In this document: one piece after another, positions 3,819 through 17,487 of the stretch
Position numbering within the stretch: position 1 is the first letter of the stretch
Layout of the letters: every line of letters starts with the position of its first letter
Assembly (NCBI GenBank): GCA_937890735.1
Contig: CALACZ010000099.1
Span: 1-56,153 of the forward strand
Source: an uncultured Bacillota bacterium
Lineage (GTDB): Bacteria; Bacillota; Clostridia; Oscillospirales; Oscillospiraceae
Reading direction: 5' to 3'
Length of the DNA stretch: 56,153 nucleotides
Made by a program: the position numbers and the translations under genes
Notes under the pieces: model-generated
Seen by the model: only the letters and a program-made list of their open reading frames with translations
Told to the model about the DNA's origin: nothing
Databases searched by the model: none

Positions 3819-5030
3819 TTAGAACACTGTTACCAAGAACTGCGTCACCAGCACCACCGCGATGAGGGCGATGGGGTACGTCGCCGCGTAGGCGGAGGCA
3901 ACGTTGCTCGTGCCCGCCACATGGATAAGCGTGCCGAGCGCCGGGGTGGACGTCATGCCTCCCGTGATCGAGCCGAGGATGTTCAGCAGGTTCAGCTTCA
4001 GCACATACCGCGCAACAATGTAGCCGAGGATCATCGGCAGCAGCGTCATCACGATGCCGTAGACGAAGTAGATCGGCTTAAAGTAGCGCACAAAGCTCAT
4101 GCCGCCGGACACGCCCGCGCCGATCAGGAACACCATCAGCCCCAGCTCGCGGAACGTTTCGAGCACCTTTTTGCTCGGCATCAGGTCGGCACGGCCAACG
4201 TGACCGAAGTGCCCGAAGATAAGTGAGATGAGCAGCGTGCCGCCCGTGGTCGTGAGCGAGAAGAAGCCGAAAAGCTTGACCGAGCCCACCAGAATGCCCA
4301 GCACCGCAGCGAGAGCAAACGGCGTAAAGCCAAAATCGTCAAACTCCAGGAGCTTGCCCTTGTACTTCTCCACATCGCCCGTTTCCACATGGGTGATCTT
4401 GCGCACCTCTTCTTTCATATCAGCATGGACGATGCGCGGCATGAGCTGCACGAACAGCACCACGCCGATCACGCCGAACAGGTACGCGATGCCGTAGCCG
4501 ACCGTGACGGCGTCCTGATAGTTCGCCGCGACGGCTTCCTTCGTCGCCGAGAACGCCGGGGTGGACGTCAGCGCGCCCGACAGAAGCCCGGTGATGATGG
4601 CGGTGAGCTGCTGCGGGTCATAGCCCGGCGTGCCGCTCTCCAGCCCGCGCGCGACGAGCAGGCACAGCATCGCCGCGATACCGCCGGAGAAGATAATGAC
4701 AAAGCCCAGCAGCACATAGGACTTGAAATTCTTCTTCATGTTTTTGAAGAAGTTCGGACCGGCGATAAAGCCGACGGACGTAACAAAGAACACAAGCCCC
4801 AGATTTTCCACGATCTTCAGCGCCTGCGAGGCGTAGTTGACCTCCTCGAGAACGAACTTGGAGTTAAAGTGTATCCCGAAAAACGCGCCGTAGATGAGTG
4901 CGATGACAAACACGCCAGCCGTGCCGAGGCTGATCCCCTTGATGGTGATGCGCCCCAGAATATATCCCACCGCCGCGATTGCAAAGACCGACAGCATCAG
5001 GAAGTTGGCGGCGTTCATTGAAAATGACAT
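3819..5030 (-). CDS. AspT/YidE/YbjL-family antiporter, probable succinate/dicarboxylate exporter
   Basis: Duplicated GALTSTPA / GGMTSTPALG motifs, GISLGTAGV, GYGIAYLFG, YAATYP; last gene of the fumarate-reductase cluster. Confidence 0.85.
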   Translation of the reverse strand: MSFSMNAANFLMLSVFAIAAVGYILGRITIKGISLGTAGVFVIALIYGAFFGIHFNSKFVLEEVNYASQALKIVENLGLVFFVTSVGFIAGPNFFKNMKKNFKSYVLLGFVIIFSGGIAAMLCLLVARGLESGTPGYDPQQLTAIITGLLSGALTSTPAFSATKEAVAANYQDAVTVGYGIAYLFGVIGVVLFVQLMPRIVHADMKEEVRKITHVETGDVEKYKGKLLEFDDFGFTPFALAAVLGILVGSVKLFGFFSLTTTGGTLLISLIFGHFGHVGRADLMPSKKVLETFRELGLMVFLIGAGVSGGMSFVRYFKPIYFVYGIVMTLLPMILGYIVARYVLKLNLLNILGSITGGMTSTPALGTLIHVAGTSNVASAYAATYPIALIAVVLVTQFLVTVF

Positions 5031-5059
5031 GACGTAGTTCCTCTTAAATCTCTTTCATT

Positions 5060-6676
5060 TTACTTTGCAAGAGTAGGTTCTTCCCTGCGGGTGTAATCCG
5101 GCAAAAGCTGCGGCGAGAGCTTCTCTGCCGGCTTGCCGCTCTTGGCACGCTCTGCCTCAAACGCTTCGAGATGGCTGAGCGTCAGCTTTCCGACCGTGAC
5201 GTTCTTCGCCTTTTCGGAGGCGTGCACGCCGGCGTTGCGCCCAAAGACGATGACGTCCAGCAGGCTGTTGCCCATCAGGCGGTTGCGCCCGTGGATACCG
5301 CCCACGACCTCGCCCGCGGCGAACAGGTTCTCAACGTCCGTCTGCCCGTCGGGGGTGATGTGCAGACCGCCGTTCTGATAGTGGAGCGTCGGATAGACGA
5401 GGATCGGCTCAGTGCGAATGTCGATGCCGTGCTTGCCGAACATCCGCATCATGGCGGGAATGCGCTTTTCGATCGTGCCCGCGCCGTTTTTCAGCTCAAT
5501 CATCGGCGTGTCCAGCCACACCGCATCGCCAAGAGGCGTTTTGATGCCCTTGCCGCGCGCGGAGCACTCGCGGATGATGGACGCGGCGGCAACGTCGCGC
5601 GTCTCCAGCGGGTTCATGAACACCTCGCCGTCACAGTTTACAAGCATCGCACCGACCGAGCGCACCTTTTCCGTCACCAGCGCGCCAAAGATCTGCGCCG
5701 GGAACGCCGCGCCCGTGGGATGGTACTGGAGCGTATCGGCGTACAGCAGCTTTGCGCCCGCGCGGTAGCCGAGGATGAGCCCGTCCGCCGTCGCACCGTA
5801 GTGGTTCGAGGTCGGGAAGCCCTGATAGTGCAGCCGCCCCGCACCGCCGGTGGCAAGAATGACGGTCTTGGCGCGCGCAACGTACAGCTCCTTCGTCTCC
5901 ATGTTCATGAGGATCGCGCCCGCGCAGTGCCCGTTTTCGTCCTTCATGAGCTCGATGGCGGAGGTGAAGTCCACCACGGGGATCTGACGGTTGAGCACCT
6001 CATCGCGCAGCGTGCGCATGATCTCCGCGCCGGAGTAGTCCTTTGCCGCGTGCATCCGCTTGCGGGACGTGCCGCCGCCGTGGGTGGTGATCATCGTGCC
6101 GTCGGGCGCTTTGTCAAACTCCACGCCAAGCTCGGAGAGCCATTCGATGGCTTCCGGCGCTTCGGTGACGAGCTTGTAGAGCAGATCCTTCTGTGCGGCG
6201 AAATGTCCGCCGCCGTAGGCGTCGAGGAAGTGCTGGGCGGGAGAATCGTTCGGCTTGTCCGCCGCCTGAATGCCGCCCTCCGCCATCATCGTGTTCGCGT
6301 CGCCCATGCGCAGCTTCGTCACGATCATGGTCCTGGCGCCCGCCTTGTCGGCTTCGATGGCTGCCGAGCAGCCCGCGCCGCCCGCGCCGATGATGAGCAC
6401 GTCGGTGTCATAGTCCGGGCAGGACAGGTCGATCTGCTTATTCAGAATGCGGGACGTACCCTCGAGCAGCGCCGCCAGCTCCGTGGGAACCTTTTCGCCC
6501 TTGTTCGGGCCAAAGTACAGCACGGTGAACTGGTTCTCGCGGTAGTCGGGATGATACGTTTTGAGCAGAACGTCTTTTTCCTCCGCCGTCATTCTGCGGG
6601 GATCGAGCTTGATGTTTTCCGCGCGGGCAGCTTCGACCTTACGGATGGATTCGAGCATTTTCGGATCAGTATACAT
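5060..6676 (-). CDS. frdA: Fumarate reductase/succinate dehydrogenase flavoprotein subunit (soluble, TfrA/FrdA-like)
   Basis: IIGAGGAG FAD motif, ATGGAG, QYHPTG, LVTEKVR, ETRDVAA, PTLHYQNGG, AAGEVVGGIHGRNRLMGNSL dicarboxylate-site residues. Confidence 0.88.
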   Translation of the reverse strand: MYTDPKMLESIRKVEAARAENIKLDPRRMTAEEKDVLLKTYHPDYRENQFTVLYFGPNKGEKVPTELAALLEGTSRILNKQIDLSCPDYDTDVLIIGAGGAGCSAAIEADKAGARTMIVTKLRMGDANTMMAEGGIQAADKPNDSPAQHFLDAYGGGHFAAQKDLLYKLVTEAPEAIEWLSELGVEFDKAPDGTMITTHGGGTSRKRMHAAKDYSGAEIMRTLRDEVLNRQIPVVDFTSAIELMKDENGHCAGAILMNMETKELYVARAKTVILATGGAGRLHYQGFPTSNHYGATADGLILGYRAGAKLLYADTLQYHPTGAAFPAQIFGALVTEKVRSVGAMLVNCDGEVFMNPLETRDVAAASIIRECSARGKGIKTPLGDAVWLDTPMIELKNGAGTIEKRIPAMMRMFGKHGIDIRTEPILVYPTLHYQNGGLHITPDGQTDVENLFAAGEVVGGIHGRNRLMGNSLLDVIVFGRNAGVHASEKAKNVTVGKLTLSHLEAFEAERAKSGKPAEKLSPQLLPDYTRREEPTLAK

Positions 6677-6688
6677 GACGTTCCCTCC

Positions 6689-7363
6689 TTACTTTTCGAT
6701 CTCGCGGTGATTGTAGAGCTCCTTGATCTCATCAAGGGGCTTGCCCATCAGATCCTCGATGAGCTTTTCAAACTTGCCGTCGCGGATCTCCTGCACGCGC
6801 TCGGTGAGTTGATCGCAGTGCGGGGCGAGGTATTTGCCGTTGAGGCGGCGGGCAAGCATGGCGACCTGCGGGTGTGAAATGCCAGCCGGGCAGCGCGACG
6901 AGCAGACGCCGCACATCACGCAGTCAAACGACTCCTCTGCGCACTTTTCGTATTCGCCGCGCTGGGCGTAGGCGATGTACTGCATCACGTTCAGCCCCTG
7001 CGTGCACGCCTTGGTGCAGGCATTGCAGCCGACGCAGGAATAGATCTCGGGATAAAGCTGCATCATGATGCGCTCATCCGGGCGGACCTTTTCGATGTCG
7101 TAGATCTCTTTTACCAGCGGGAAGAACGGCAGCGTCGCCACATACATATTGTTCTCCACACGCGTGGAGCACGCGAGGCACGCCTTGAGCTCCCGGTCGC
7201 CCGCGATGCGGTAGATCGTGGCGCACGCGCCGCAGAAGCCATTGCGGCAGCCGCAGCCGCGCACGAGCTGATAGCCGGAATATTCCATCGCTTCCATGAT
7301 GGTCAGGCTGGCGGGGACTTCATACTTTTTGCCGAACAGAAAAACATTTACCATATTTTCCAT
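6689..7363 (-). CDS. frdB: Fumarate reductase iron-sulfur subunit (2Fe-2S + two 4Fe-4S)
   Basis: GCRNGFCGAC...LAC (2Fe-2S) plus CVGCNACTKAC and CVMCGVCSSRCP; directly upstream of the flavoprotein gene. Confidence 0.8.
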   Translation of the reverse strand: MENMVNVFLFGKKYEVPASLTIMEAMEYSGYQLVRGCGCRNGFCGACATIYRIAGDRELKACLACSTRVENNMYVATLPFFPLVKEIYDIEKVRPDERIMMQLYPEIYSCVGCNACTKACTQGLNVMQYIAYAQRGEYEKCAEESFDCVMCGVCSSRCPAGISHPQVAMLARRLNGKYLAPHCDQLTERVQEIRDGKFEKLIEDLMGKPLDEIKELYNHREIEK

Positions 7364-7375
7364 CGCTGTTTCTCC

Positions 7376-8203
7376 TTAATATTCATTGGGCAGCTCGTCG
7401 AGCTGGTCAAAGCGGAACACCGGGCCGTCCTTGCAGACGTATTTGCTGCCGATGTTGCAGCGCCCGCACTTGCCGAGCGCGCACTTCATCTTCAGCTCCA
7501 TGGTGGTGTATACCTGCGTGCGGGCAAAGCCCAGCTCCATCAGCCCCGCAAGGGTGAACTTGATCATGATGGGAGGGCCGCACATCACAACGGTCTTATC
7601 CGTGGTAAAGCCCAGCTCCTTCACATAGTTCGGCACAAAGCCGACGTGCCCGTCCCACTCCGGCTGCTCGCGGTCGATGGTCAGGTGGACGTTGATGCCG
7701 TCCTCCCTGCACCACACGTCCAGGATCTCCTGGAAATCGACCAGGTCCTCCTTGGAGCGCGAGCCGTAGACAATGTCGATCTTGCCGTAGCGGTCACGGT
7801 AGTGGCGGCAGTAGTTGATGACGGAGTGCAGCGGCGCAAGACCGATGCCGCCGGCGATAAACAGCAGATCCTTGCCCGCGAACGCTGTGTCCACGGGGAA
7901 GCCGTTGCCGTAGGGTCCTCGCAGCGTGATCTGCTGACCCTGCTCCATCTGGTGAAGCCACTGCGTCACGCAGCCGCATTTTTTGATGGAGAACTCCACA
8001 AATTCCTCCTCCGTCGGTGAGGACGTAATGGAAAACAGCGCCTCGCCCACGCCGGGGACGGAGAGCATCGCGCACTGCCCCGGGATGTGCTCAAACGGCT
8101 TTTTGCCGTCAAGTCCCACCACGCGGAAGGTCTTGACGTCGGGCGTGTCCACGCGGATCTTCGTGACGACGCCGATGTTGGGGATCAAGGGATCGTTTTT
8201 CAT
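7376..8203 (-). CDS. flxA: FAD/NAD(P)H oxidoreductase, FlxA/AsrB-like, with C-terminal 2Fe-2S
   Basis: PGQ, FSITSSP, RGPYGNGF, IAGGIGLAP, CGPPIMIKF, MKCALGKCGRCNIG...CKDGPVF; start MKNDP at 8203. Confidence 0.85.
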   Translation of the reverse strand: MKNDPLIPNIGVVTKIRVDTPDVKTFRVVGLDGKKPFEHIPGQCAMLSVPGVGEALFSITSSPTEEEFVEFSIKKCGCVTQWLHQMEQGQQITLRGPYGNGFPVDTAFAGKDLLFIAGGIGLAPLHSVINYCRHYRDRYGKIDIVYGSRSKEDLVDFQEILDVWCREDGINVHLTIDREQPEWDGHVGFVPNYVKELGFTTDKTVVMCGPPIMIKFTLAGLMELGFARTQVYTTMELKMKCALGKCGRCNIGSKYVCKDGPVFRFDQLDELPNEY

Positions 8204-9222
8204 TTTGCTTCCTCCCCCAGTGTTCGGATGACTTTGGCGATGTTCATGTGGATGGGGCACTTCTGAAGGCAGCGCCCGCAGCCCACGCAGCTGTAAAGCC
8301 CGTCGTTATTTTCCGGGTAATACACCAGCTTGTGCATAAAGCGCTGGCGGAAGCGCTCGAGCTGTGTCGGGCGCGGCTGACCGGCGGACATCTTCGTAAA
8401 GTCGGAGTACATACAGCTGTCCCAGCAGCGGAAGCGCCTGACAGTCTTGCCATTGTCGAACTCCTGAATGTCGTAGCACTGGCAGGTCGGGCACACGAAC
8501 GTGCACGTCCCGCAGCCGAGGCAGCTTTCGGACAGCTGCTTCCATTCCGGGCGTGCAAAGAACTCCTTCGTCTTGCCCGCACCGAATTTGGACAGGTCCA
8601 AATCGTGCAGCGGCAGCTTTTGCATCACCGCGCGGGTCTGCGCCTGCTGCGCCGCCACGGCATCGTCGCCGCCTTCTGCGAGGCAGGTCAGCGCCGCTGT
8701 CAGTGCCTCGCCCTTTTCGGTGTTGGCGCGCCAGTAGAGGTTTTCCCCGTCCATCCAGCACGTCACGTCACCCGCGGGGTCTGCCGCGTCAATGCCGAAC
8801 GCGCCGCAGAAGCACGTCTCCTCCGGCTCGGTGCACGCCATGGTCACGACCGTGCCGTTTTCGCGCCGGGTCTGATAGTAGGTGTCCACAGGCTCGGCGA
8901 GGAACACGCGGTCGAGCACGTCAAAGCTGCGGCAGTCGCACGCGCGCACGCCGAACAGCACGAACGGCGCGGTCACGTCGCGTTCCTCCAGCAGTTCGAT
9001 CTGCTTGCCCGTGACCTTGAAGCCCATGAGGTTTTCCACCTGCGGGAAGAACAGGTCCTTCGCGCTGCGCACGGTGTTGAGCGCGGGCGAGAGCGTCATG
9101 CCCTCCTGCCAGACGGTGAATTTACTGACGCCGGAGGCGTCCTGCGCCGGGATGTACAGGGTCTTTTCGCCGCTGATCGCCGCGAACAGCTTCGGCAGCT
9201 TTGCGATCGGGAGCTTTTTCAT
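8200..9222 (-). CDS. flxB: 4Fe-4S protein, FlxB/AsrA-like
   Basis: FGVRACD, TCFC, CLGCGTCTFVCPTCQC, RCWDSC, RFRQRFMHK, CVGCGRCLQKCP; start MKKLP at 9222. Confidence 0.83.
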   Translation of the reverse strand: MKKLPIAKLPKLFAAISGEKTLYIPAQDASGVSKFTVWQEGMTLSPALNTVRSAKDLFFPQVENLMGFKVTGKQIELLEERDVTAPFVLFGVRACDCRSFDVLDRVFLAEPVDTYYQTRRENGTVVTMACTEPEETCFCGAFGIDAADPAGDVTCWMDGENLYWRANTEKGEALTAALTCLAEGGDDAVAAQQAQTRAVMQKLPLHDLDLSKFGAGKTKEFFARPEWKQLSESCLGCGTCTFVCPTCQCYDIQEFDNGKTVRRFRCWDSCMYSDFTKMSAGQPRPTQLERFRQRFMHKLVYYPENNDGLYSCVGCGRCLQKCPIHMNIAKVIRTLGEEAK

Positions 9223-10193
9223 GCCTTTGCACCTCCCCGTTCGTATACGACGGACGGCTCGCAGTCGTCCTTGGTAAAGTTCATCAGCGGGGGCTTCGTG
9301 TCCATATCCGCGCCCGCCTGATAAACGCCGTACAGCTCGTTGATGTCTTTTATAAACTTGCGGTTGAGCAGATGCAGCGGGATATGCTGCGGGCAGACCC
9401 GCGAGCACTCGCCGCAGTCGGTGCAGCGTGCCGCCACATGGAACGCGCGGATGATATGGAAGAAATCCTCCTCAAAGCTGTCCGCCGCCGCCTTATTGTC
9501 CGTGCCGAGGTCGTGGTTATCAAACACGCACTTTTCGCACGAGCACGCGGGGCATACATTGCGGCAGGCATTGCAGCGGATGCAGCGCGAGAGCTCGCCG
9601 CGCCAGAACGCGTAGCGCTCTTCGGGGGTCATGGCTTCGAGCTTCGCCACCTCGTCAAAGCGGGCGGAGGTAAGCTCCTCACCCTGCTCGCCGAGCAGCT
9701 CGTCAAATTCCACGATCTTTTTGGACTTGCACACCGTGCAGCGCCCGAGCAGAACGTCCTGCTTGTTCACGGTCTTTTCGCCCGTAAGCGTCGTGACGCG
9801 AAGCCGGTCGCCGTCCTCCGTGACCGCCGTGACGCCCTTGCAGCCCGCGGCGCGAATTTTGTCGATGTCGCACATCCCGTCACACTGCACGCCGACCACA
9901 TACACATGGTCGCGGAGAATGCGGTGTTCCTTCAGGAGCTGCACAAAGGAGTAGCTGTCGCACGGCTTCAGGAACACGCCGACCTTGCCGCCCTTGCGGG
10001 ACTCCTGAATGAGATATTTTGAGAGATTGGCTGCCGAGAATGCACTCCAGACGAAGTCGTTTTCGATCTCTTCGGCGGTTGTGAACACCGCCGGGGTCAG
10101 GTCGTAGAAGAACTCGCCCGCCTTCCAGCCGAGCACGCGATCGACCGTACCGCTCTGGAGCAGCGCCAATGCCTTTTCCTTTACTCCTTGCAT
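9219..10193 (-). CDS. flxC: 4Fe-4S dicluster protein, FlxC-like (FrhB/FdhB-related)
   Basis: KPCDS, RCIRCNACRNVCPACSCEKC, HVAARCTDCGECSRVCPQHIPL; start MQGVK at 10193. Confidence 0.8.
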   Translation of the reverse strand: MQGVKEKALALLQSGTVDRVLGWKAGEFFYDLTPAVFTTAEEIENDFVWSAFSAANLSKYLIQESRKGGKVGVFLKPCDSYSFVQLLKEHRILRDHVYVVGVQCDGMCDIDKIRAAGCKGVTAVTEDGDRLRVTTLTGEKTVNKQDVLLGRCTVCKSKKIVEFDELLGEQGEELTSARFDEVAKLEAMTPEERYAFWRGELSRCIRCNACRNVCPACSCEKCVFDNHDLGTDNKAAADSFEEDFFHIIRAFHVAARCTDCGECSRVCPQHIPLHLLNRKFIKDINELYGVYQAGADMDTKPPLMNFTKDDCEPSVVYERGGAKA

Positions 10194-10618
10194 CTCAGGT
10201 CCTCCAATCTGCGGTTTTCGCCGAGTTTGGTGATCGTCGCCACAAAGTCGTTCATCGTGGCGGCAAACTTTGCGCCCTCCGCGGCGGACACCCACTCCAC
10301 GCGCGTGCGCTCCTTTTCGATGCCGAGGAAGTCGAGCATCGAGAACAGCAGCGTCATGCGGCGGCGGGCATAGTAGTTGCCGGTGGTGTAGTGGCAGTCG
10401 CCGGGGTGGCAGCCGCACAGGATCACGCCGTCCGCGCCGCGCTGGAACGCGCGCAGGATGAACATCGGGTTCAGACGGCAGGAGCACGGGATGCGGATGA
10501 TCTTGACGTTTGCCGGATAGTTCAGCCGGTTCGTGCCCGACAGATCCGCGCCCGCATACGAGCACCAGTTGCAGCAAAATGCAACGATGGTGGGTTTCCA
10601 GCTTTCATTTACCTGCAT
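10181..10618 (-). CDS. mvhD: MvhD/FlxD 2Fe-2S subunit
   Basis: IVAFCCNWCSYAGAD, IRIPCSCR, GADGVILCGCHPGDCHY, WVSAAEG; start MQVNE at 10618. Confidence 0.93.
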   Translation of the reverse strand: MQVNESWKPTIVAFCCNWCSYAGADLSGTNRLNYPANVKIIRIPCSCRLNPMFILRAFQRGADGVILCGCHPGDCHYTTGNYYARRRMTLLFSMLDFLGIEKERTRVEWVSAAEGAKFAATMNDFVATITKLGENRRLEDLRCKE

Positions 10619-12600
10619 ATCGCATCCACCTCCGCCATGATCTGCTTGTTGGAGAAGCCCTTGAGATCCATCGCGCCGGACATACACGCCACCGTGCACG
10701 CGCCGCAGCCCTGGCACACCGCCGGGTTGACCTGCGCTACGCGGCGGATGAGCGTCGTGCGGTTCGGACCTCTAAATTCCTTGTCGATATAAGTAATTGC
10801 GCCGTAGGGGCACACCTTTTCGCAGTTGGAGCAGCCGTTGCACATCATCTCGTCCGGCTGCGCAACGCACGGGTTGCACGTCAGATGGTCCTTGGCGAGC
10901 AGCCCAATGACCTTGGACGCCGCCGCGCCCGCCTGCGCGACCGTTTCGGGGATGTCCTTCGGACCCTGGCACGCGCCGGAAAGGAAGATGCCCGCCGTGG
11001 GGCTTTCCACCGGGCGCAGCTTCGGGTGCGCTTCGGTAAAGAAGTCGTTCGTGTCCATGGACGCGGTGAGCATCGTGGCGAGCGGGCGCGCCGTCTCGTC
11101 CGGCTCGATCGCCGCCGCGAGCACGACCATGTCCGCGTCGATGTGGAGCTGCCGCCCACCGATGAGGTCGGACGCCTGCACCTTCAGCTTGCCGTTTTCC
11201 GGCACGACCTTGCCGACCATGCCCTTGATGTAGTGCACACCGTATTCCTCGACCGCGCGGCGGTAGAACTCGTCAAAGTTCTTGCCGGGGGTGCGCACGT
11301 CGATGTAGAACACATACACATCCGTATCAGGGTATTTTTCGCGGCAGAGCATGGCGTGCTTCGCCGTGTACATACAGCAGATCTTGGAGCAGTAGGGCTT
11401 GCCCTTCTCCGCGCCGTCGCAGCGCGAGCCGACGCACTGCACGAACACCAGCGTTTTCGGGTGCGTGCCGTCCGAGGGACGCAGCAGCGTGCCGCCGGTC
11501 GGTCCGGCAGCGTTCATCAGACGCTCAAATTCAAGGCTGGACACCACGTCCGGGCTCTGCGAATACGCAAATTCGTCGAACTTGTCGAGCTTGATGGGGT
11601 TAAAGCCGGTGGCGACCACGATCGCGCCGTACTCCTGCTCCACGAGCGTATCCTGCTGCTTATAGTCGATCGCACCCGCGGTGCACACCTTGGAGCACAC
11701 GCCGCACTTGCCGGTCTTGAGCATGGTGCAGTAATCCGCGTCGATGGTAGCGATCTTCGGCACCGCCTGCGCAAACGGGATGTAGATGGCGCGGCGGGTG
11801 TCGAGCCCGAGGTTAAAATCGTTCGGGACTTTTTTCTGCGGGCACTTCTCGGTGCAAAGACCGCAGCCGGTGCAGACGTCCTCGTTCACATACCGCGCCT
11901 TTTTACGGATGGTCACATGGAAGTTGCCCACAAAGCCCTTGACCGCCTCGACCTCGGAATAGGCGTATATTTTGATCTTTTCGTTCTGTGCCGCCTCGAC
12001 CATCTTCGGCGTGAGGATACACGCCGCACAGTCGAGCGTGGGAAATGTCTTGTCGATCTGCGTCATTTTGCCGCCGATGGTGGGCTTCTTTTCCACGATG
12101 TCCACCTCAAAGCCGGCGTCGGCGATGTCCAGCGCCGTCTGGATGCCGGCGATGCCGCCGCCGATGACGAGCGCGCGCTTCGTCACGGGGCTTTCGCCCG
12201 CCGTGAGCGGCGCGTCCAAATGCACCTTGGCGATGGCGGCTCTGCCGAGGATGACCGCCTTTTCCGTCGCCTCATCCTTATCCTTATGGATCCAGGAGCA
12301 CTGCTCGCGGATGTTGGCGATCTCCACCATGTAGCCGTTCAGCCCCGCCGACGCGCACGCCTTGCGGAACGTCTGCTCGTGCATGCGCGGGGAGCAGGAG
12401 CACACGACCACGCCCGTGAGCTTGTGCTCATGGATGGCGTTTTTGATGAGGTCCTGCCCGCTCTGCGAGCACATATACGGATAGTCGGTCGAGAAAACAA
12501 CGCCGGGCTCGTGCCCAAGAGTTTCCGCGACTTTTTTGACGTCCACCGTTGCGGCGATATTCGTACCGCAGTGGCAGACAAACACACCGATCCTCTGCAT
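10609..12600 (-). CDS. hdrA: Heterodisulfide reductase subunit A (bifurcating FAD/Fe-S)
   Basis: RIGVFVCHCGTNIA, CSCSPRMHE, ANIREQCSW, IGGGIAG, DKTFPTLDCAACILTPK, QCVGSR, YCSKICC, GACQGPKDIP. Confidence 0.96.
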   Translation of the reverse strand: MQRIGVFVCHCGTNIAATVDVKKVAETLGHEPGVVFSTDYPYMCSQSGQDLIKNAIHEHKLTGVVVCSCSPRMHEQTFRKACASAGLNGYMVEIANIREQCSWIHKDKDEATEKAVILGRAAIAKVHLDAPLTAGESPVTKRALVIGGGIAGIQTALDIADAGFEVDIVEKKPTIGGKMTQIDKTFPTLDCAACILTPKMVEAAQNEKIKIYAYSEVEAVKGFVGNFHVTIRKKARYVNEDVCTGCGLCTEKCPQKKVPNDFNLGLDTRRAIYIPFAQAVPKIATIDADYCTMLKTGKCGVCSKVCTAGAIDYKQQDTLVEQEYGAIVVATGFNPIKLDKFDEFAYSQSPDVVSSLEFERLMNAAGPTGGTLLRPSDGTHPKTLVFVQCVGSRCDGAEKGKPYCSKICCMYTAKHAMLCREKYPDTDVYVFYIDVRTPGKNFDEFYRRAVEEYGVHYIKGMVGKVVPENGKLKVQASDLIGGRQLHIDADMVVLAAAIEPDETARPLATMLTASMDTNDFFTEAHPKLRPVESPTAGIFLSGACQGPKDIPETVAQAGAAASKVIGLLAKDHLTCNPCVAQPDEMMCNGCSNCEKVCPYGAITYIDKEFRGPNRTTLIRRVAQVNPAVCQGCGACTVACMSGAMDLKGFSNKQIMAEVDAICR

Positions 12601-12612
12601 TGCTCTCCCTCC

Positions 12613-12999
12613 TTACTTTTTGTATTTTCTAAATGCGCTGGTGATCGCCTGCTGCGGAATGTCCTCGTCCAGGATCTCGGGGATGCGCTCGGGCTTGAGG
12701 TGATCCGCACCCTGCTGGCGCACGACCGCGTCGCGCACGGCTTCGATGAGCGCGGCGGGCTCGACGCTGCGCGGGCAGCGTTCCACGCACGCAAAGCAGC
12801 TCAAGCAGCGGTAAATACCGCGCGAGTTCATCAGTTCTTCGATGCGGCCCGTTTCGACCATATCCACGAACTGGTGCGGATGGTAGTCCATCTCGTCATA
12901 CGCCGGGCACGCGCCGGAGCACTTGCCGCATTTCATGCACTTTCTCGGATTGACGCCGGCGATGCGCTTTATATCCTCGATCAGATATTCCTTGTTCAT
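12613..12999 (-). CDS. hdrC: Heterodisulfide reductase subunit C
   Basis: CMKCGKCSGACP and CLSCFACVERCPR; start MNKEY at 12999; between hdrB and hdrA. Confidence 0.9.
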   Translation of the reverse strand: MNKEYLIEDIKRIAGVNPRKCMKCGKCSGACPAYDEMDYHPHQFVDMVETGRIEELMNSRGIYRCLSCFACVERCPRSVEPAALIEAVRDAVVRQQGADHLKPERIPEILDEDIPQQAITSAFRKYKK

Positions 13000-13787
13000 T
13001 CGGCATCCTCCTTCACGCCCAGCGCCTCGGCGAGCAGCTCGGTAAAGTAGTGCACCGGCAGCCCAGCCTCCGCGTTTGCGGTGAGATTGTACATACAAAG
13101 CGGGCAGGCGGTGATGAGTTCCTCCGCGCCGCACGCCTTCGCGTTTTCCATGAGCTTGTCCACCTGTTTTCTGGCAAACTCCTTGCCCTCGACCACGGTG
13201 TAGCCGCCGCAGCATTCGTTGCGCCGCGCCCACACGACGGGCTCTGCGCCGATGGCGCGGATGAAATCCTCCAGAATGGTCGGATTTTCGGGGTCGTCAA
13301 AGCCCATTTCCTTGCCCGGGCGGAGCAGCAGGCAGCCGTAATACGCGCCGATCTTACGCCCCGTGAGCGGATTTGTGACCTTTTTCGCAAGCTCGTCAAA
13401 GCCGATACGGTCGCGCAGGACCTCCAGATAGTGCAGCACCGTCGTCTCGCCCGTGTACGGCACGTCGAGCTGTAAGTAATTCTGCACGCGCGAGGCGATG
13501 GTCTCGTCGCGTTTCAGATCGCCGTTCACGCGCTTGATGACGTGATGGCACGCCGAGCAGAGCGTTACCAGCTCCTGCCCGGCGTCGCGCGCGGCGGCAA
13601 GCGCCCGCACAGACGACAGACGGGTCGCGATCTCGTCCTTCGCCATGGGATACACCGCGCCGCAGCACTGCCAGTCCGGCAGCTCGCACAGCTCAAATCC
13701 CAGCGCCTGCGCGGCTTTTCTGCCGTACAGGTCGAGCTGCTTGCCCTTGGTTTTCAGCGTGCAGCCCGGAAAATAACTGAATGTCAT
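12996..13787 (-). CDS. hdrB: Heterodisulfide reductase subunit B (two CCG domains)
   Basis: YFPGC...WQCCG...CSAC and YYGC...ECCG...ACPLC. Confidence 0.93.
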   Translation of the reverse strand: MTFSYFPGCTLKTKGKQLDLYGRKAAQALGFELCELPDWQCCGAVYPMAKDEIATRLSSVRALAAARDAGQELVTLCSACHHVIKRVNGDLKRDETIASRVQNYLQLDVPYTGETTVLHYLEVLRDRIGFDELAKKVTNPLTGRKIGAYYGCLLLRPGKEMGFDDPENPTILEDFIRAIGAEPVVWARRNECCGGYTVVEGKEFARKQVDKLMENAKACGAEELITACPLCMYNLTANAEAGLPVHYFTELLAEALGVKEDAE

Positions 13788-13797
13788 AAGCCTCACC

Positions 13798-15174
13798 TCA
13801 GACCATCTGTTCGGGATGGAACACTTCGTCGAATTTTTCCGCCGTCAGGAAGCCGAGCGCCACGCACGCTTCCTTGAGCGAGATGTTTTCTTTATATGCC
13901 TTCTTGGCGGTCTTGGCGGCGTTTTCATAGCCGATGTACGGGTTGAGCGCCGTGACCAGCATCAGGGAATTGTAGAGATTGTGGTGCATCTTTTCGCGGT
14001 TGGCGGTGATGCCCACGGCGCAGTGGTCGTTGAACGACACGATCGACTCCGCCAGCAGCCGCGCGGATTGCAGGAAATTGTAGATGCACACGGGCATGAA
14101 CACGTTCAGCTCAAAGTTGCCCTGCGACGCGGCAAGACCCACCGCCACGTCGTTGCCCATGACCTGCACGGCGACCATCGTGACCGCCTCGCACTGCGTG
14201 GGGTTGACCTTGCCGGGCATGATGGAAGAACCCGGCTCGTTTTCGGGGATGAAAATCTCGCCCAGACCGTCGCGAGGGCCGGATGCCAGCCAGCGCACGT
14301 CGTTTGCGATCTTCATCATGTCCGCCGCCAGCGCCTTGATCGCGCCGTGCGCAAAGACGAGCTCGTCTTTACTCGTGAGGGCGTGGAATTTATTCGGCGC
14401 GGTGATGAAGTCCTTGCCGGTCAGCTCAGAGACCGCCTCGGCGACCTTCACGTCAAAGCCCTTCGGCGCGTTCAGACCCGTGCCGACCGCCGTGCCGCCG
14501 AGCGCCAGCTCTTTGAGCGGCGGGAGCGCGATCTCAAGCATTTTGCGGTCCTTTTCCAGGCTGCTGCGCCAGCCGGAGATCTCCTGCGAGAACTCGATGG
14601 GCGTAGCGTCCTGCAAATGCGTGCGACCCGATTTTACGATGCCGCGGTTCTCCTCCTCCAGACGGCGGAAGGTCGCCGCGAGCTTGTCGATCGCCGGGAA
14701 GAGCTTGTCCTCGATGGCGGCGACGGCGGCGATGTGCATCGCCGTGGGGAAGGTGTCGTTCGACGACTGGGACATATTGATGTCGTCATTCGGGTGCAGG
14801 AGCTTTTTGCCCGCGATCTCATTGCCGCGGTTGGCAATGACCTCGTTGGCGTTCATGTTCGACTGCGTGCCCGAGCCGGTCTGCCACACCACCAGCGGGA
14901 AGTGGTCGTTCAGGCTGCCCGAGATGACCTCGTCACACGCCTGCGAGATCGCCGCCAGCTTTTCGTCCGTCATTTTTTCCGGGCGCAGCGCGTGGTTGGC
15001 GATCGCCGCCGCCTTTTTCAGGATGCCGAATGCGTGTGTGATCTCGCGCGGCATGACCTCGATGCCCACGCCGATGGGGAAATTCTCGTGGCTGCGCTGG
15101 GTCTGCGCCGCCCAGTAGCGATCCGCCGGGACGCGGACCTCGCCCATTGAATCATGCTCCATGCGGTATTCCAT
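13798..15174 (-). CDS. fumC: Class II fumarate hydratase
   Basis: [54 protein letters not shown]; start MEYRM at 15174 with GGAGG RBS. Confidence 0.96.
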
Positions 15175-15217
15175 AAAACTGTTCCCTCCGATAGTGTTGA
15201 TTTGTCGATCATTCAGG

Positions 15218-15251
15218 AAAAAAGTCACATCCGGCGAGTCCCCGATGTGAC
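15218..15251 (-). terminator. Terminator-like hairpin with U-tract between mdh and fumC
   Basis: Minus strand GTCACATC-N12-GATGTGAC-TTTTTT. Confidence 0.55.
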
Positions 15252-15333
15252 GCTCTTGCAGTTGGGGCGCTTTGCCCCCGAATACGTCCCGCGCCCGCGC
15301 CGCCATGCAGCGGCGCGGGCAGGACGGTATGCA

Positions 15334-16278
15334 TCAGATGTTGATCTGCGTGATGACTTCCTTGAGCTTGTTCGCGCTGTTCTGGAGCTTGGCGACCTCG
15401 TCGTCGGTGAGCTTGTTGAGGATCTTGCCGCGCACGCCGGTATTGTCGACCAGCGCCAGCGTGGACAGGCACACATCGTCCACGCCGTATTCGCCGTGCA
15501 TCAGCGTGGAGACCGTCAGCGCCGTGCCGGCGGTGTTGAGCAGGCACTTGCACAGGTGGCACACGGACATCGCAACGGCATAGAACGTTGCGCCCTTTGC
15601 CTTGATGACCTGCCCGCCCGAGGTACGGACGAACTCTTCGATCTCGGCGTACTGCTGATGCCAGTCGATGCGGTCCTTATCCGGGGAGCTCTCCTTGTAG
15701 GCATCCACATGGTTGTTGGCGATGTGCACCAGCGACCAGGGCACGAACGAGGAATCGCCGTGCTCGCCGTAAACGTGCGCGTGCACGTTCTTGGGGCTGA
15801 TGCGGAAGATCTTCGCCAGCTCGGACTGGAGACGGCTGGTGTCGAGGATCGTACCCGAGCCGATGATCTGGTTTTCGGGCAGACCCGAGATCTTGTGGAA
15901 CACATACGTCAGCACGTCCACGGGGTTTGAGACGATGACATACTTCGCATTCGGCGCAGCCTTCACGACCTGCGGCGCAATGTCCTTGATGATGTTGACG
16001 TTCGCCTGCGCGAGATCCAGACGGGACTGACCCGCCTTGCGCGGCATACCCGAGGTGATGACCACGATGTCGGAGCCGGCAGTCGCGGCATAGTCGCCGG
16101 AGCGCACGATGGCGGGAGAGCAGAACGGAGCGCCCTGATAAATATCCAGCGCCTCGCCGAATGCCTTCTGCTTGTTGATGTCCACCAGAACGATCTCGGA
16201 AGCCGTGCCCTGGATCATCAGGTCGTTCGCGATAGTCGCGCCCACACTGCCCGCGCCGATCACAGAAATCTTACTCAT
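15334..16278 (-). CDS. mdh: LDH/MDH-family dehydrogenase, probably malate dehydrogenase
   Basis: GAGSVG, SNPVD, LDTSR, GEHGDS. Substrate loop GMPRKAGQSR has Arg (MDH-type) rather than Gln, and the gene sits directly upstream of fumC. Alternative start 16290. Confidence 0.78.
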   Translation of the reverse strand: MSKISVIGAGSVGATIANDLMIQGTASEIVLVDINKQKAFGEALDIYQGAPFCSPAIVRSGDYAATAGSDIVVITSGMPRKAGQSRLDLAQANVNIIKDIAPQVVKAAPNAKYVIVSNPVDVLTYVFHKISGLPENQIIGSGTILDTSRLQSELAKIFRISPKNVHAHVYGEHGDSSFVPWSLVHIANNHVDAYKESSPDKDRIDWHQQYAEIEEFVRTSGGQVIKAKGATFYAVAMSVCHLCKCLLNTAGTALTVSTLMHGEYGVDDVCLSTLALVDNTGVRGKILNKLTDDEVAKLQNSANKLKEVITQINI

Positions 16279-16437
16279 ACCCTGTACCATCCTTTATCAT
16301 AAAAATTTGAACTTGCGATTGGAAACTTTGACGAATGCCGGGGCATTCGTCCCCCCTGTCCCTGATTATATCGAATCCGGGAGAAAAACAGAAATGCTTT
16401 TCTCCCGGATCGTATATCATTTTTCATATAGGAATGC

Positions 16438-17328
16438 TTATTTGCGATACTCGCGGATCACATACTGTACGAACCCCGCCTCAATATCAGTCATCGCGTA
16501 CTGCGGATTGTAGACCAGTGCGTCCTGATACACCACCGAATTGTCCTCGCACGGCTTCTGGATCAGACCCCAGCGCTGGAGATACTGCTCCGGCATCGGC
16601 GGCAGCCAGGTGTACACGCCCCAGATGGTCTGCAAAAGCTGGAGCTGCGCCATGCGGTCCACGGTGTAGATCGTGCGGCACGCCGAGTCCTCCGTGCGCA
16701 CGCGCGGGCGCTGCGCGTCGCCGTGGATGATCTGCGGGTATTCTGCCAGATCCTCCATGCGGATCGTCTCCCGCCGTGCCAGCGGGTGGTCGCGCGGCAG
16801 CACCAGCTCGTATTTGAACCGCCCCAGCACCTGAAAGCTGAACTCGCGTTCCGCCGTCTGCTCGTCAAAATAGTCCAGATATTCCGAGCGGAAGCGCAAA
16901 ACGCCCAGCTCCGCCTCGCCCACGGTGAGCATTTGCAGCGCCTGCCGTGCGTGGCACTCGCGGATGGTCACTTCCAGCTCCCCGGACGACGTGAGCGAGG
17001 CAAGATACTCCGCCGCCAGGTCGAACAGCCGCGCCGAGCGCGGCAGGCACACGCGCAGACGGCTGCGCACGGCATGGCGCGGTCCGAGCGCCTCGATATA
17101 TTCCATCTCGCGCAGCACGCCCCGCGCGTGCAGCAAAAATTTCGCCCCGCGCTCCGTGGGGCGCACGCCGCGGCTCGTCCGCTCAAAAATGCGGAAGCCC
17201 AGCGTCTTTTCGAGGTCATGCAGGATGCGGCTGAGATTCGGCTGCCCAATGAACAGATTTTCCGCCGCCTGCGAGATCGACCGCGTGCGCTCGATCTCCA
17301 CAACGTACTGTAAATGCTGCGTATTCAT
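16438..17328 (-). CDS. LysR-family transcriptional regulator
   Basis: N-terminal HTH SISQAAENLFIGQPNLSR...LGFRIFERTSRGVRPT; 296 aa. Confidence 0.93.
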   Translation of the reverse strand: MNTQHLQYVVEIERTRSISQAAENLFIGQPNLSRILHDLEKTLGFRIFERTSRGVRPTERGAKFLLHARGVLREMEYIEALGPRHAVRSRLRVCLPRSARLFDLAAEYLASLTSSGELEVTIRECHARQALQMLTVGEAELGVLRFRSEYLDYFDEQTAEREFSFQVLGRFKYELVLPRDHPLARRETIRMEDLAEYPQIIHGDAQRPRVRTEDSACRTIYTVDRMAQLQLLQTIWGVYTWLPPMPEQYLQRWGLIQKPCEDNSVVYQDALVYNPQYAMTDIEAGFVQYVIREYRK

Positions 17329-17487
17329 GTCCGCTTCGCTCCATTTCCGGCGTTGTGCGCCCTTTTTTCACAGTGATTATATATCATTTCGCGCATATCC
17401 GCAAGTGAAATAAAATGGATTTAGGATGCCGCACGGCAGGCGTGCAGGATGCAAAAGCAGAAAAAGTCGGGATATGCCACAAAATCC

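Follow-up and report, generated by a model that had tools for sequence, protein, structure and literature searches.

The window, that is, the whole 56,153-nucleotide stretch analysed here, carries at 3819-17328 on the minus strand a series of genes for a LysR regulator, malate dehydrogenase (MDH), fumarase, HdrB, HdrC, HdrA, FlxD, FlxC, FlxB, FlxA, FrdB, FrdA and a permease (Table 1). Genes were called from ORF coordinates together with Pfam and NCBIfam profile matches. All twelve genes named in the original prediction were present in the same orientation on the minus strand, and the ORF coordinates bore out the tight packing it described, with four overlaps of 4-13 nt, a further one of 4 nt between hdrB and hdrC, and otherwise gaps of 1-29 nt. 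The exception is the mdh-fumC gap, which may measure 160 nt if fumC starts at 15174; the fumC ORF is open up to 15306. The cluster had been given as 3819-16278, of which the upper end is an ATG four codons inside the mdh ORF (which reaches 16290), and the LysR gene described as its own regulator lies directly upstream and co-oriented, though outside that interval. As predicted, no Pfam match to a membrane anchor, cytochrome or hydrogenase large subunit was found within the cluster. Unrelated genes border the operon: TrmO and a YkuD transpeptidase at one end, and AraC, an M24 peptidase, PIG-L and proCAB at the other. The MAG that carries it is of Oscillospiraceae type, represents a mesophilic gut host and has a G+C content of about 60%.

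Table 1. Features of the operon and its upstream region in the window.
Feature	Position	Strand	Basis
AspT/YidE/YbjL (AAEx) family permease, 403 aa	3819..5030	-	Asp-Al_Ex E 6.2e-55
FrdA-like flavoprotein	5060..6676	-	FAD_binding_2 at residues 92-472
FrdB-like iron-sulfur subunit	6689..7363	-	2Fe-2S domain + 4Fe-4S dicluster domain
FlxA, NAD(P)H-binding FAD/2Fe-2S input subunit	7376..8203	-	FAD_binding_6, NAD_binding_1, DHODB_Fe-S_bind
FlxB, AsrA/HydB-like Fe-S protein	8200..9222	-	Fer4_22 E 2.6e-30
FlxC Fe-S protein	9219..10193	-	Fer4_8, Fer4_9
FlxD / MvhD-like 2Fe-2S electron-transfer subunit	10181..10618	-	HdrA2 and VhuD model matches
HdrA flavoprotein	10609..12600	-	NF040770 HdrA2, Pyr_redox_2, Fer4
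HdrC-like 2x[4Fe-4S] subunit	12613..12999	-	TIGR03290 spans residues 20-96 only
HdrB-like subunit	12996..13796	-	PF02754 x2
Class II fumarate hydratase FumC (malate -> fumarate)	13798..15174	-	TIGR00979, Lyase_1, FumaraseC_C
LDH-family 2-hydroxyacid dehydrogenase, probably malate dehydrogenase (oxaloacetate -> malate)	15334..16290	-	Ldh_1_N, Ldh_1_C
lysR-mdh intergenic repeats	16330..16420		Repeat search and sequence inspection
LysR-family regulator, upstream of operon, co-oriented	16438..17328	-	PF00126 E 3.3e-18, PF03466 E 3.6e-11

Between lysR and mdh, we found a 26-nt inverted repeat (arms 16365-16390 and 16395-16420) and a perfect 10-bp palindrome at 16330-16351, which are candidates for a lysR terminator and/or operator. 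LysR orthologues with 58-59% identity stood directly upstream of mdh in two of five more distant related records tested. The MDH-like protein exceeded the NCBIfam cut-off for L-LDH (323 bits against 303.55) and fell below that for the MDH subfamily (270.6 against 283). At the site that discriminates LDH from MDH, six residues ahead of the conserved Arg of the RLDL motif, it carries an Arg, which we take to be a malate dehydrogenase marker. The enzyme is thus probably a malate dehydrogenase, at odds with the NCBIfam call, and its initial 'mdh-like' label holds despite that score. FumC was assigned by TIGR00979 (fumC_II, 713 bits against a cut-off of 664.75), with the match beginning at ORF residue 47. 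The permease matched TIGR01625 at 128 bits (cut-off 71.95), scored far under the cut-offs of the full-length AspT/YidE equivalogs and lacks the central cytoplasmic domains. It is a candidate succinate exporter, with succinate as its putative substrate, and was located downstream of the operon in 40 of 65 loci and missing there in 25.

FrdA has a conserved N-terminal extension of about 90 residues and lacks a Succ_DH_flav_C domain. Its best NCBIfam match was TfrA, whose 345 bits were far under the cut-off of 718, and the Sdh/Frd models (286 bits) and NadB models (273-278 bits) likewise scored below their cut-offs. In an alignment to E. coli FrdA, residues H319, R339, H432 and R466 fall on its catalytic His/Arg positions, and all four were invariant across 25 sequences. 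In the same alignment, Asn128 stands in place of the covalent-FAD histidine, which we take to be a signature of soluble enzymes working in the reductase direction; by this signature the FAD of FrdA would be non-covalently bound. The structure model of FrdA was mediocre (mean pLDDT 67.7). The database annotates the protein just as 'FAD-dependent oxidoreductase', and it is the sole full-length FAD_binding_2 protein of the source genome. FrdB contains one 2Fe-2S motif and two CxxCxxCxxxC motifs (two 4Fe-4S), with no 3Fe-4S-type motif, and its cysteines were conserved in 49 sequences. FrdA and FrdB can be regarded as one enzyme because a natural FrdB-FrdA fusion, P0125, matches FrdB at 39% identity along 221 residues and then FrdA at 55%.

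Such an enzyme might act on a different substrate, either as an L-aspartate oxidase for NAD synthesis or as a urocanate/acrylate-type enoate reductase, in keeping with the nearly equal scores of the NadB and Sdh/Frd models, the missing Sdh/Frd C-terminal domain and the unspecific annotation. We consider this very unlikely, since NadA was found in none of the 11 genomes of the genus, FrdA has its own FrdB-type Fe-S partner with a natural fusion of the two, the fumarate reductase catalytic residues are invariant, and FumC was encoded in the operon in 43 of 48 loci. MDH was present in 35 of 44.

HdrB contains two complete CCG motifs, corresponding to two non-cubane 4Fe-4S sites, and its ten motif cysteines were invariant in 43 sequences. 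Its best NCBIfam match was the SdhE subunit of methylmenaquinol:fumarate reductase (MFR; 142 bits), followed by HdrB (129 bits), both under cut-off. SdhE of this reductase is a CCG protein that works with an SdhB-type subunit. The C-terminal tail of HdrC is conserved and could not be aligned to HdrC models; P115, Q116, Q117, A118, R124 and K125 were invariant in 22 sequences. HdrA is full-length, with inserted and C-terminal ferredoxin domains and 79-99% identity across loci, and matched NF040770 (HdrA2) over residues 3-661 at 792.8 bits, under the cut-off of 1100; it is a candidate carrier of the bifurcating FAD. FlxD scored 175.5 bits with the MvhD-like C-terminal portion of HdrA2 and 136.4 bits with VhuD, whose cut-off is 215. 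The position of FlxC was kept in 62 of 62 loci, FlxB scored 137-162 bits with the ShyB, HydB and AsrA models, each under cut-off, and FlxA was HydG/AsrB/PyrK-like by NCBIfam.

We then profiled the cluster across related genomes, as the original prediction had proposed. Among 80 related loci, all 54 with enough upstream DNA retained the nine-gene core hdrBCA-flxDCBA-frdBA in the same order and spacing, and the arrangement is therefore not due to chance. Of 399 genomes sampled from the class, 99 (55 of 217 genera) had an FrdA orthologue (E<=1e-100, 63-78% identity). The quinone-free reading also gained support: the cluster lacks an anchor gene, and a search of 11 genomes of the genus found MenA in none. 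The description of the cluster as self-contained was overstated, because PEPCK, for oxaloacetate supply, is encoded elsewhere; an ATP-type PEPCK was present in 9 of the 11 genomes, with a fragment at a contig end in the source genome. Methylmalonyl-CoA mutase was not found in the searched sequence data.

To examine the predicted contacts between HdrBC and FrdB, we modelled HdrB, HdrC and FrdB as a complex. FrdB scored an ipSAE of 0.84 (0.84, 0.84 and 0.83 in three runs), whereas the best of three controls scored 0.00; in the calibration, which is rough for a three-chain job, 116 of 157 solved complexes attained this mark, as did 2 of 215 mismatched pairs. The three runs shared at least 96% of their contacts and partner pLDDT was at least 83, with the model built on shallow alignments (61-95% identity). 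The predicted interface places FrdB Y108-N114, including C110 and C113, on the N-terminal CCG site of HdrB (C12, W42, Q43 and C44), together with the HdrC tail (103-127). Positions conserved at 90% or more were modestly enriched at the interface in HdrB (69% vs 46%) and FrdB (78% vs 64%) and not enriched in HdrC (42% vs 56%). A sequence search found no solved structure containing an FrdB-like chain and HdrB together, and the score is thus unlikely to reflect memory of a known complex.

Because the model puts FrdB directly on HdrB, electrons may pass straight from one to the other, and a thiol carrier is probably unneeded. No carrier for HdrB had been seen in the window, and none is evident beyond it: DsrC was found in none of the 11 genomes of the genus, and the only CCG domains of the source genome are those of the operon HdrB. 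In Desulfovibrio vulgaris, FlxABCD-HdrABC is reported, by Ramos et al. in 2015, to have NADH as proposed donor, HdrA as proposed bifurcation site and DsrC as proposed acceptor. The seven subunit types match those found here by domain content, in the order flxABCD-hdrABC rather than hdrBCA-flxDCBA; in place of DsrC, the in-operon FrdAB is the likely high-potential acceptor. That classical scheme would also suit a two-enzyme system, modelled on the methanogen thiol:fumarate reductase, in which Flx-Hdr reduces a disulfide (and ferredoxin) with NADH and FrdAB re-oxidises the thiol while reducing fumarate. The two intact CCG motifs of HdrB would fit such a true disulfide reductase, and TfrA is the best match of FrdA. 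We regard this system as improbable, given how far the TfrA score lies under its cut-off, the lack of a CCG domain for thiol oxidation in FrdB, the restriction of CCG domains in the source genome to HdrB, the negative search for DsrC in 11 genomes of the genus and the predicted position of FrdB on the N-terminal CCG site.

Taken together, the locus probably encodes an NADH-dependent, ferredoxin-reducing (bifurcating) soluble fumarate reductase within a quinone-independent pathway in the cytoplasm that leads from oxaloacetate to exported succinate. What the genes are, how well they are conserved, which catalytic residues they keep and that alternative partners are missing was observed, and the docking of FrdB on HdrB/HdrC was modelled; from these we infer the direction of reaction, NADH rather than NADPH as donor, and bifurcation to ferredoxin. 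MDH would convert oxaloacetate to malate and FumC malate to fumarate, which soluble FrdAB, physically wired to HdrABC-FlxABCD, would reduce to succinate for export by the AspT-type permease. NADH would be oxidised at FlxA, with electrons passing through the Fe-S clusters of FlxB and FlxC and the 2Fe-2S cluster of FlxD to the FAD of HdrA, where every pair would be split. The high-potential electron would travel through HdrC, the non-cubane clusters of HdrB and the clusters of FrdB to the non-covalent FAD of FrdA and on to fumarate, with HdrB serving as a wire onto FrdB and no thiol/disulfide intermediate needed. The low-potential electron would reach ferredoxin through the ferredoxin domains of HdrA, giving the net reaction 2 NADH + fumarate + oxidised Fd -> 2 NAD+ + succinate + reduced Fd. 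With potentials of -320 mV for NADH, +30 mV for fumarate and about -420 to -500 mV for ferredoxin, the coupled reaction is exergonic.

Reduced ferredoxin may be drained by the host's own hydrogenase, a single [FeFe] enzyme in the source genome, and, in roughly half of the genus, also by Rnf. The search for Rnf gave no hit in the source genome (79% complete) and was positive in only 5 of the 10 further genomes from the genus; an energy-conserving sink is therefore not assured. The negative result would suit a plain NADH:fumarate reductase, in which Hdr/Flx merely wires NADH to FrdAB and leaves ferredoxin unreduced; electron flow from NADH to fumarate is strongly exergonic alone, and the gene content and docking model fit equally well. 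We nevertheless find this unlikely, as seven subunits, among them a full-length HdrA with both ferredoxin domains, would make a costly wire, and HdrA is, to our knowledge, the bifurcating subunit in all characterised Hdr. In addition, the suppression of succinate formation by H2 in Pseudoclostridium thermosuccinogenes, as discussed in PMC7282089, fits ferredoxin coupling.

The complex could also run in reverse, consuming succinate by oxidising it to fumarate together with reduced ferredoxin and making NADH (confurcation). Flavin-based bifurcation can in principle run either way, MDH and FumC are reversible, and AspT-family carriers may be exchangers. In complex II enzymes, efficient succinate oxidation needs covalent FAD, and the Asn in FrdA and the unfavourable textbook potentials make this direction highly doubtful. 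PEPCK is present in the genus, and the homologous operon described in PMC7282089 comes from a succinate producer; both argue against succinate consumption.

When compared with known systems, the fumarate reductase described here resembles E. coli FrdABCD/SdhABCD in its flavoprotein fold and catalytic His/Arg, and FrdB shares with the complex II Fe-S subunit a 2Fe-2S and two further clusters. It differs from membrane-bound complex II in having no anchor or quinone, no covalent-FAD histidine, no Succ_DH_flav_C domain, and a second FrdB cluster motif of the 4Fe-4S rather than the 3Fe-4S type. In type E SdhABE/MFR, the CCG protein SdhE, the best family match of HdrB, partners the Fe-S subunit. Methanogen TfrB joins FrdB-like Fe-S and HdrB-like CCG parts, the same two modules predicted to be docked here; unlike in TfrAB, FrdB has no fused CCG domain, and FrdA lacks the C-terminal domain and carries the 90-residue N-terminal extension. 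In tubeworm symbionts, tfrAB is interleaved with flxABCD-hdrABC, and tfrAB-flxABCD-hdrABC-korABCD clusters occur (PMC6315080), whereas kor genes are absent from the present operon.

The Flx-Hdr-Frd clusters that the original prediction attributed to succinate-producing clostridia have a counterpart in PMC7282089, where the 'succinate operon' of P. thermosuccinogenes comprises a fumarate hydratase gene, seven genes for Flx-Hdr, two for fumarate reductase and one for a putative succinate transporter. According to the same paper, which cites Koendjbiharie & van Kranenburg 2019 (Preprints 10.20944/preprints201912.0288.v1), this operon was up about 4-fold at 1% CO2, and its proposed role is to couple NADH oxidation to the reduction of fumarate and ferredoxin. 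The concept was thus already published in 2019-2020 as a hypothesis, and we found no biochemical assay of this enzyme type in the literature. Compared by published description, the two operons are alike in gene series, order and proposed function, and the present one is a further case of the proposed 'succinate operon'. It differs in the additional LDH-family MDH and LysR upstream, in a transporter assignable to the AspT/YidE family, and in its mesophilic gut host.

Genes were called by ORF listing and identified with Pfam and NCBIfam scans. The original prediction had named a dehydrogenase, a fumarase, the Hdr and Flx subunits, FrdAB and a transporter together with a LysR regulator, and this gene list was borne out, with every gene on the minus strand. 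By ORF coordinates, adjacent genes of the cluster overlap by 4–13 nt or are separated by gaps of 1–29 nt, and the Pfam scan found no membrane anchor, cytochrome or hydrogenase large subunit within the cluster. The domain content comprises the full FlxABCD–HdrABC subunit set (FlxA, FlxB, FlxC, FlxD, HdrA, HdrB and HdrC), and FumC scored above the cut-off of the class II fumarate hydratase equivalog TIGR00979. On one side the unrelated flanking genes are TrmO and YkuD; the other flank encodes AraC, an M24 peptidase, PIG-L and proCAB. The genome, of which the window is contig C99, comprises 2.06 Mb in 224 contigs and is 79% complete.

Genes of the probable fumarate reductase operon and its upstream regulator in the window
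Gene product	Position (nt)	Strand	Remarks
LysR regulator	16438-17328	-	
LDH/MDH-family dehydrogenase	15334-16290	-	
Class II fumarase FumC	13798-15174	-	ORF open to 15306; TIGR00979 713.3 bits (cut-off 664.75)
HdrB	12996-13796	-	two CCG domains
HdrC	12613-12999	-	
HdrA	10609-12600	-	
FlxD	10181-10618	-	MvhD-like
FlxC	9219-10193	-	Fe-S
FlxB	8200-9222	-	Fe-S
FlxA	7376-8203	-	FAD/NAD/2Fe-2S
FrdB	6689-7363	-	
FrdA	5060-6676	-	
AspT/YidE-type permease	3819-5030	-	

The operon probably encodes an NADH-dependent, ferredoxin-reducing fumarate reductase route that leads from oxaloacetate to exported succinate. In this scheme, oxaloacetate would be supplied by PEPCK and converted to fumarate by MDH and FumC. 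Electrons from NADH would enter at FlxA and reach the HdrA FAD by way of FlxB, FlxC and FlxD, where the pair would be split at the flavin: one electron would travel via HdrC, HdrB and FrdB to the FAD of FrdA and on to fumarate, and the other through the ferredoxin domains of HdrA to ferredoxin. Succinate would leave through the AspT-family permease, and reduced ferredoxin could be consumed by an [FeFe] hydrogenase in the window organism, with Rnf as an alternative sink in roughly half of the genus. Given the potentials of NADH (-320 mV), fumarate (+30 mV) and ferredoxin (about -420 to -500 mV), downhill electron transfer from NADH to fumarate would pay for uphill ferredoxin reduction. We infer bifurcation, NADH (not NADPH) as the donor, the direction of operation and the transported substrate.

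In FrdA, Pfam placed an FAD_binding_2 domain at residues 92-472 and gave no match to Succ_DH_flav_C (PF02910). The domain follows a conserved N-terminal extension of ~90 residues that is kept in full-length relatives down to 42-55% identity. The best NCBIfam family was TfrA (NF004900) with 345 bits against a cut-off of 718; the Sdh/Frd model TIGR01812 gave 286 bits (cut-off 567) and the NadB models 273-278 bits (TIGR00551, 272.7 against a cut-off of 452.75). Since all of these scores fall under the cut-offs, FrdA is, as judged by family models, a clade of its own. A HMMER alignment to E. coli FrdA (1kf6_A) paired H319, R339, H432 and R466 with the catalytic residues, which we take to be His232, Arg287, His355 and Arg390, and all four are invariant in 25 sequences. 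The fold and the catalytic His/Arg/His/Arg set are thus common to FrdA and complex II SdhA/FrdA, but the covalent-FAD histidine, the Succ_DH_flav_C domain and a membrane anchor gene are absent from FrdA and its cluster. Action of FrdAB on another substrate, which the low family scores would allow and to which the invariant catalytic residues are set in opposition, seems highly improbable. We read FrdA as a fumarate reductase subunit; in the same alignment, Asn128 occupies the position of the covalent-FAD histidine, presumably His44 of E. coli FrdA. Non-covalent FAD is typical of soluble enzymes working reductively. Reverse operation by confurcation, in which the same subunits would run from succinate and ferredoxin towards NADH, we accordingly hold to be very unlikely, and the reductive direction is retained here. 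An AlphaFold2 model of FrdA from a 25-row alignment had a mean pLDDT of 67.7 and a pTM of 0.75; block means in the N-terminal extension were 56-88, too weak for interpretation.

FrdB contains one 2Fe-2S motif and two CxxCxxCxxxC motifs and, on the basis of these motifs, would carry two 4Fe-4S clusters, unlike the 4Fe-4S and 3Fe-4S pair of complex II. It is not TfrB-like with a fused CCG domain, as its match was limited to positions 19-94 of the 488-position TfrB model. The pair therefore differs from TfrAB in both subunits, FrdA being far under the TfrA cut-off and FrdB being without the fused domain, and the methanogen-type Tfr scheme was rejected because FrdB has no CCG domain. Among the relatives from the FrdA homologue search, protein P0125 is a natural fusion of 727 residues, in which an N-terminal FrdB-like segment (39% identity over 221 residues) is joined to an FrdA-like one (55%). 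By the Rosetta-stone argument, this fusion indicates that FrdA and FrdB form one enzyme. P0125 further shows that a junction between the FrdB C-terminus and the FrdA N-terminal extension is possible.

We then modelled how FrdB could be connected to the Hdr subunits. Both CCG motifs of HdrB are complete, with cysteines invariant in 43 sequences, and its best NCBIfam family was the SdhE subunit of methylmenaquinol:fumarate reductase (142 bits; methanogen HdrB, 129 bits). HdrA and FlxD jointly cover the HdrA2 model end to end. A Flx/Hdr module that merely conducts electrons from NADH to fumarate as a non-bifurcating wire could be built from the same subunits, and with HdrA2-type coverage in place we consider it unlikely; bifurcation at HdrA is the reading we follow. 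Using alignments from the window and related loci (43 rows for HdrB, 22 for HdrC and 49 for FrdB), the predicted HdrB + HdrC + FrdB complex scored 0.84 by ipSAE with FrdB as the scored partner (runs 0.84, 0.84 and 0.83), against 0.00 for the best of 3 controls. Among calibration cases, a score this high occurred in 116 of 157 solved complexes and in 2 of 215 mismatched pairs, a rough guide here given the custom alignments and three chains. The runs shared at least 96% of contacts, and FrdB pLDDT was at least 83.

In the model, HdrB contacts comprise C12, K15, T16, D41-C44, A57-S61 and Y107-L108, which form the N-terminal CCG site, and FrdB contributes residues 96-114 (with two cysteines of the first 4Fe-4S motif, C110 and C113), 125-137 and P159. 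HdrC contributes residues 103-127, a C-terminal tail that is conserved yet left unaligned by HdrC family models. Positions conserved at 90% or more were modestly enriched at the interface in HdrB (69% vs 46%) and FrdB (78% vs 64%), and not enriched in HdrC (42% vs 56%). Pairing of HdrB with HdrC is textbook knowledge. By sequence search, PDB relatives of HdrB were confined to Hdr complexes of methanogens (5 distinct sequences) and those of FrdB were weak (best RnfC at 1e-7, SdhB near 1e-3), so that the FrdB–HdrB result is unlikely to be a memory of a solved complex. As a prediction, the model supports binding of FrdB to HdrB/HdrC. There is about an even chance that HdrB serves as a wire rather than a disulfide reductase, with FrdB seated over the N-terminal CCG cluster and held by the lineage-specific HdrC tail, and that FrdAB–HdrABC–FlxABCD forms a thiol-free, soluble NADH-bifurcating supercomplex acting on fumarate and ferredoxin.

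The genome encodes one full-length FAD_binding_2 protein, FrdA, and one CCG protein, HdrB. DsrC, NadA, RnfC, RnfA/E and methylmalonyl-CoA mutase were not found in this 79% complete genome; on the last of these, with the same completeness applying, a succinate-to-propionate route was rejected. Its ATP-type PEPCK is represented by a C-terminal fragment at a contig end, and its single [FeFe] hydrogenase has 501 residues with ferredoxin-like domains. At the hydrogenase locus (contig C118, 4733-9355), genes for an ECF-transporter S component, a RACo-type corrinoid activation protein with 2Fe-2S and ASKHA domains, and a DUF3786 protein precede on the same strand. Because of the incompleteness, key searches were repeated on 11 genomes of the genus, the window genome included. 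DsrC (PF04358) was found in 0/11, which leaves HdrB without any known disulfide carrier as acceptor in the genus; the cluster thus has the subunit types of FlxABCD–HdrABC but not the DsrC acceptor. A thiol-mediated, Tfr-like scheme, to which the complete CCG motifs and the TfrA-leaning FrdA score could be credited, is improbable in the face of this result, and direct transfer from HdrB to FrdB remains the preferred path. NadA was likewise found in 0/11 genomes, leaving no quinolinate synthase to give an L-aspartate oxidase a purpose, and on this ground that candidate was rejected; the NadB score is also below cut-off. MenA was found in 0/11, and the genus thus has no menaquinone prenyltransferase. 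PEPCK was present in 9/11 genomes, including 3/3 high-quality ones, as a PEP-carboxylating enzyme to supply oxaloacetate, and Rnf in 5/11.

The dehydrogenase has Arg at the MDH/LDH discriminating site, which precedes the RLDL-motif Arg by six residues. We take this site to be LDH residue 102, with Arg in MDH and Gln in LDH, a rule that reportedly goes back to Wilks et al. in 1988. The protein scored 323.3 bits against the L-LDH model TIGR01771 (cut-off 303.55) and 270.6 against the MDH subfamily NF004863 (cut-off 283); it is a probable MDH, although NCBIfam would call it L-LDH. Its closest solved relative, 1y6j, was deposited as 'L-lactate dehydrogenase'; because it also has Arg at the discriminating site, that name may be wrong. 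The permease scored 128.2 bits against the duplicated-domain model TIGR01625 (cut-off 71.95) and 110-129 bits against the AspT, YidE and YbjL equivalogs (cut-offs 449-645). At 403 aa, against about 560 for full-length members, it has no central domains. SucE of Corynebacterium, a succinate exporter, belongs to the AspT family.

Close relatives of FrdA number in the thousands; the best 120 clusters are 82-97% identical and nearly all 530-540 residues long, and where a name is given, it is 'FAD-dependent oxidoreductase', in MAGs of Acutalibacteraceae, Faecousia and other Clostridia. A scan with one genome per species gave at least 577 FrdA relatives among 598 candidate stretches. We placed the 13 window proteins by tblastn on the best 80 of these loci, from Oscillospiraceae, Faecousia, Avoscillospira, Ruminococcus, Christensenellales and others, each count being confined to loci whose DNA extended far enough on the side concerned. 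From hdrB to frdB, the full set of eight genes that precede frdA kept the same order and strand in 54/54 loci; FumC was found in 43/48, MDH in 35/44 and the permease in 40/65. The downstream permeases fell into two classes, 82-97% and 46-61% identical to the window protein (e.g. related loci L009, L010 and L016-L023). With two such classes and the permease missing in 25/65 loci, export appears by sequence to be the least conserved part of the system. LysR lay outside the flank taken for this mapping and was sought separately in 5 records, 2 of which had an orthologue directly upstream and co-oriented (58-59% identity).

FrdA orthologues occurred in 22/301 genomes and 13/134 genera of the family (E<=1e-120), and in 99/399 sampled genomes and 55/217 genera of the class (E<=1e-100; 2 genomes not scored), including 85/350 high-quality genomes. 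As the class-wide orthologues are 63-78% identical, these searches describe a system that is patchy yet widespread and unusually conserved. Taken as a whole, the operon is genuine and conserved, with a coherent function. Some orthologue matches (e.g. in genomes G105, G146 and G678) contain one or two in-frame stops, TGA or TAA, which may reflect extension of the match past the gene end or assembly error. Small shares of the operon's sequence words occurred in two metatranscriptome runs from a single study (X1, 0.10; X3, 0.05) and in X2, a probable DNA run. At a likeness of at least 90%, X1 contigs covered 28/30 operon bins and X3 contigs 22/30, all contigs being short. X1 contigs numbered 5 at 99% or more, 46 at 95-99% and 72 at 90-95%; since most are 90-95% alike, they come from relatives, and because RNA libraries may also contain DNA, X1 and X3 were rejected as evidence for transcription of this copy and for the operon structure.

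The gene arrangement has already been published. According to PMC7282089, P. thermosuccinogenes has a 'succinate operon' made up of a fumarate hydratase, a seven-gene Flx-Hdr set, a fumarate reductase of two genes and a candidate succinate transporter, upregulated about 4-fold at 1% CO2; by this description, the same gene types are present in the window cluster. With reference to a 2019 Preprints.org paper, its authors take fumarate reduction to be tied to that of ferredoxin. Genetic tools, CRISPRi among them, are available for this species (PMC9044749). For tubeworm symbionts, PMC6315080 suggests that TfrAB and KorABCD form a complex with FlxABCD–HdrABC. A literature search, with preprint supplements outside its scope, found no biochemical test of a bifurcating fumarate reductase, yielding PMC7282089 and otherwise unrelated genomics papers. 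Because the idea has been in print since 2019-2020, the window is another well-conserved example rather than a discovery. Our additions are the probable in-operon MDH, the LysR regulator, the transporter family, the distribution figures, the natural FrdB–FrdA fusion, searches that exclude DsrC, NadA and MenA for the genus, and a specific docking model in which HdrB would serve as a wire.

If HdrB does act as a wire, about one-quarter of sampled Clostridia genomes, many from gut and rumen, would reduce fumarate in this energy-relevant way, and HdrB-type CCG clusters would hand electrons to a protein partner rather than reduce a disulfide. Should the mechanism hold, many quinone-free Clostridia of gut and rumen would couple the reduction of fumarate to that of ferredoxin, with reduced ferredoxin going into H2 production or into energy conservation by Rnf, and the modelling of community succinate and H2 fluxes would change. 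Fumarate would then join the short list of high-potential acceptors for flavin-based bifurcation.

We also inspected the non-coding sequence around lysR. In the lysR–mdh spacer, the arms of a 26-nt inverted repeat lie at 16365-16390 and 16395-16420 (81% complementary), a perfect 10-bp palindrome occupies 16330-16351, and a 25-nt copy of the inverted-repeat stretch lies just upstream of lysR at 17365-17389 (76% identity). The spacer repeats may be a shared operator, for lysR autoregulation and operon control, or a terminator. A promoter and terminator scan was uninformative, as it gave about as many sites as expected from shuffled sequence (6 promoter-like sites vs 3.7; 14 terminator-like sites vs 14.1). 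Elsewhere in the window, a minus-strand ORF of 1461 residues (25872-30257) with three YDG domains and C-terminal SLH domains is probably a large S-layer-anchored surface protein.
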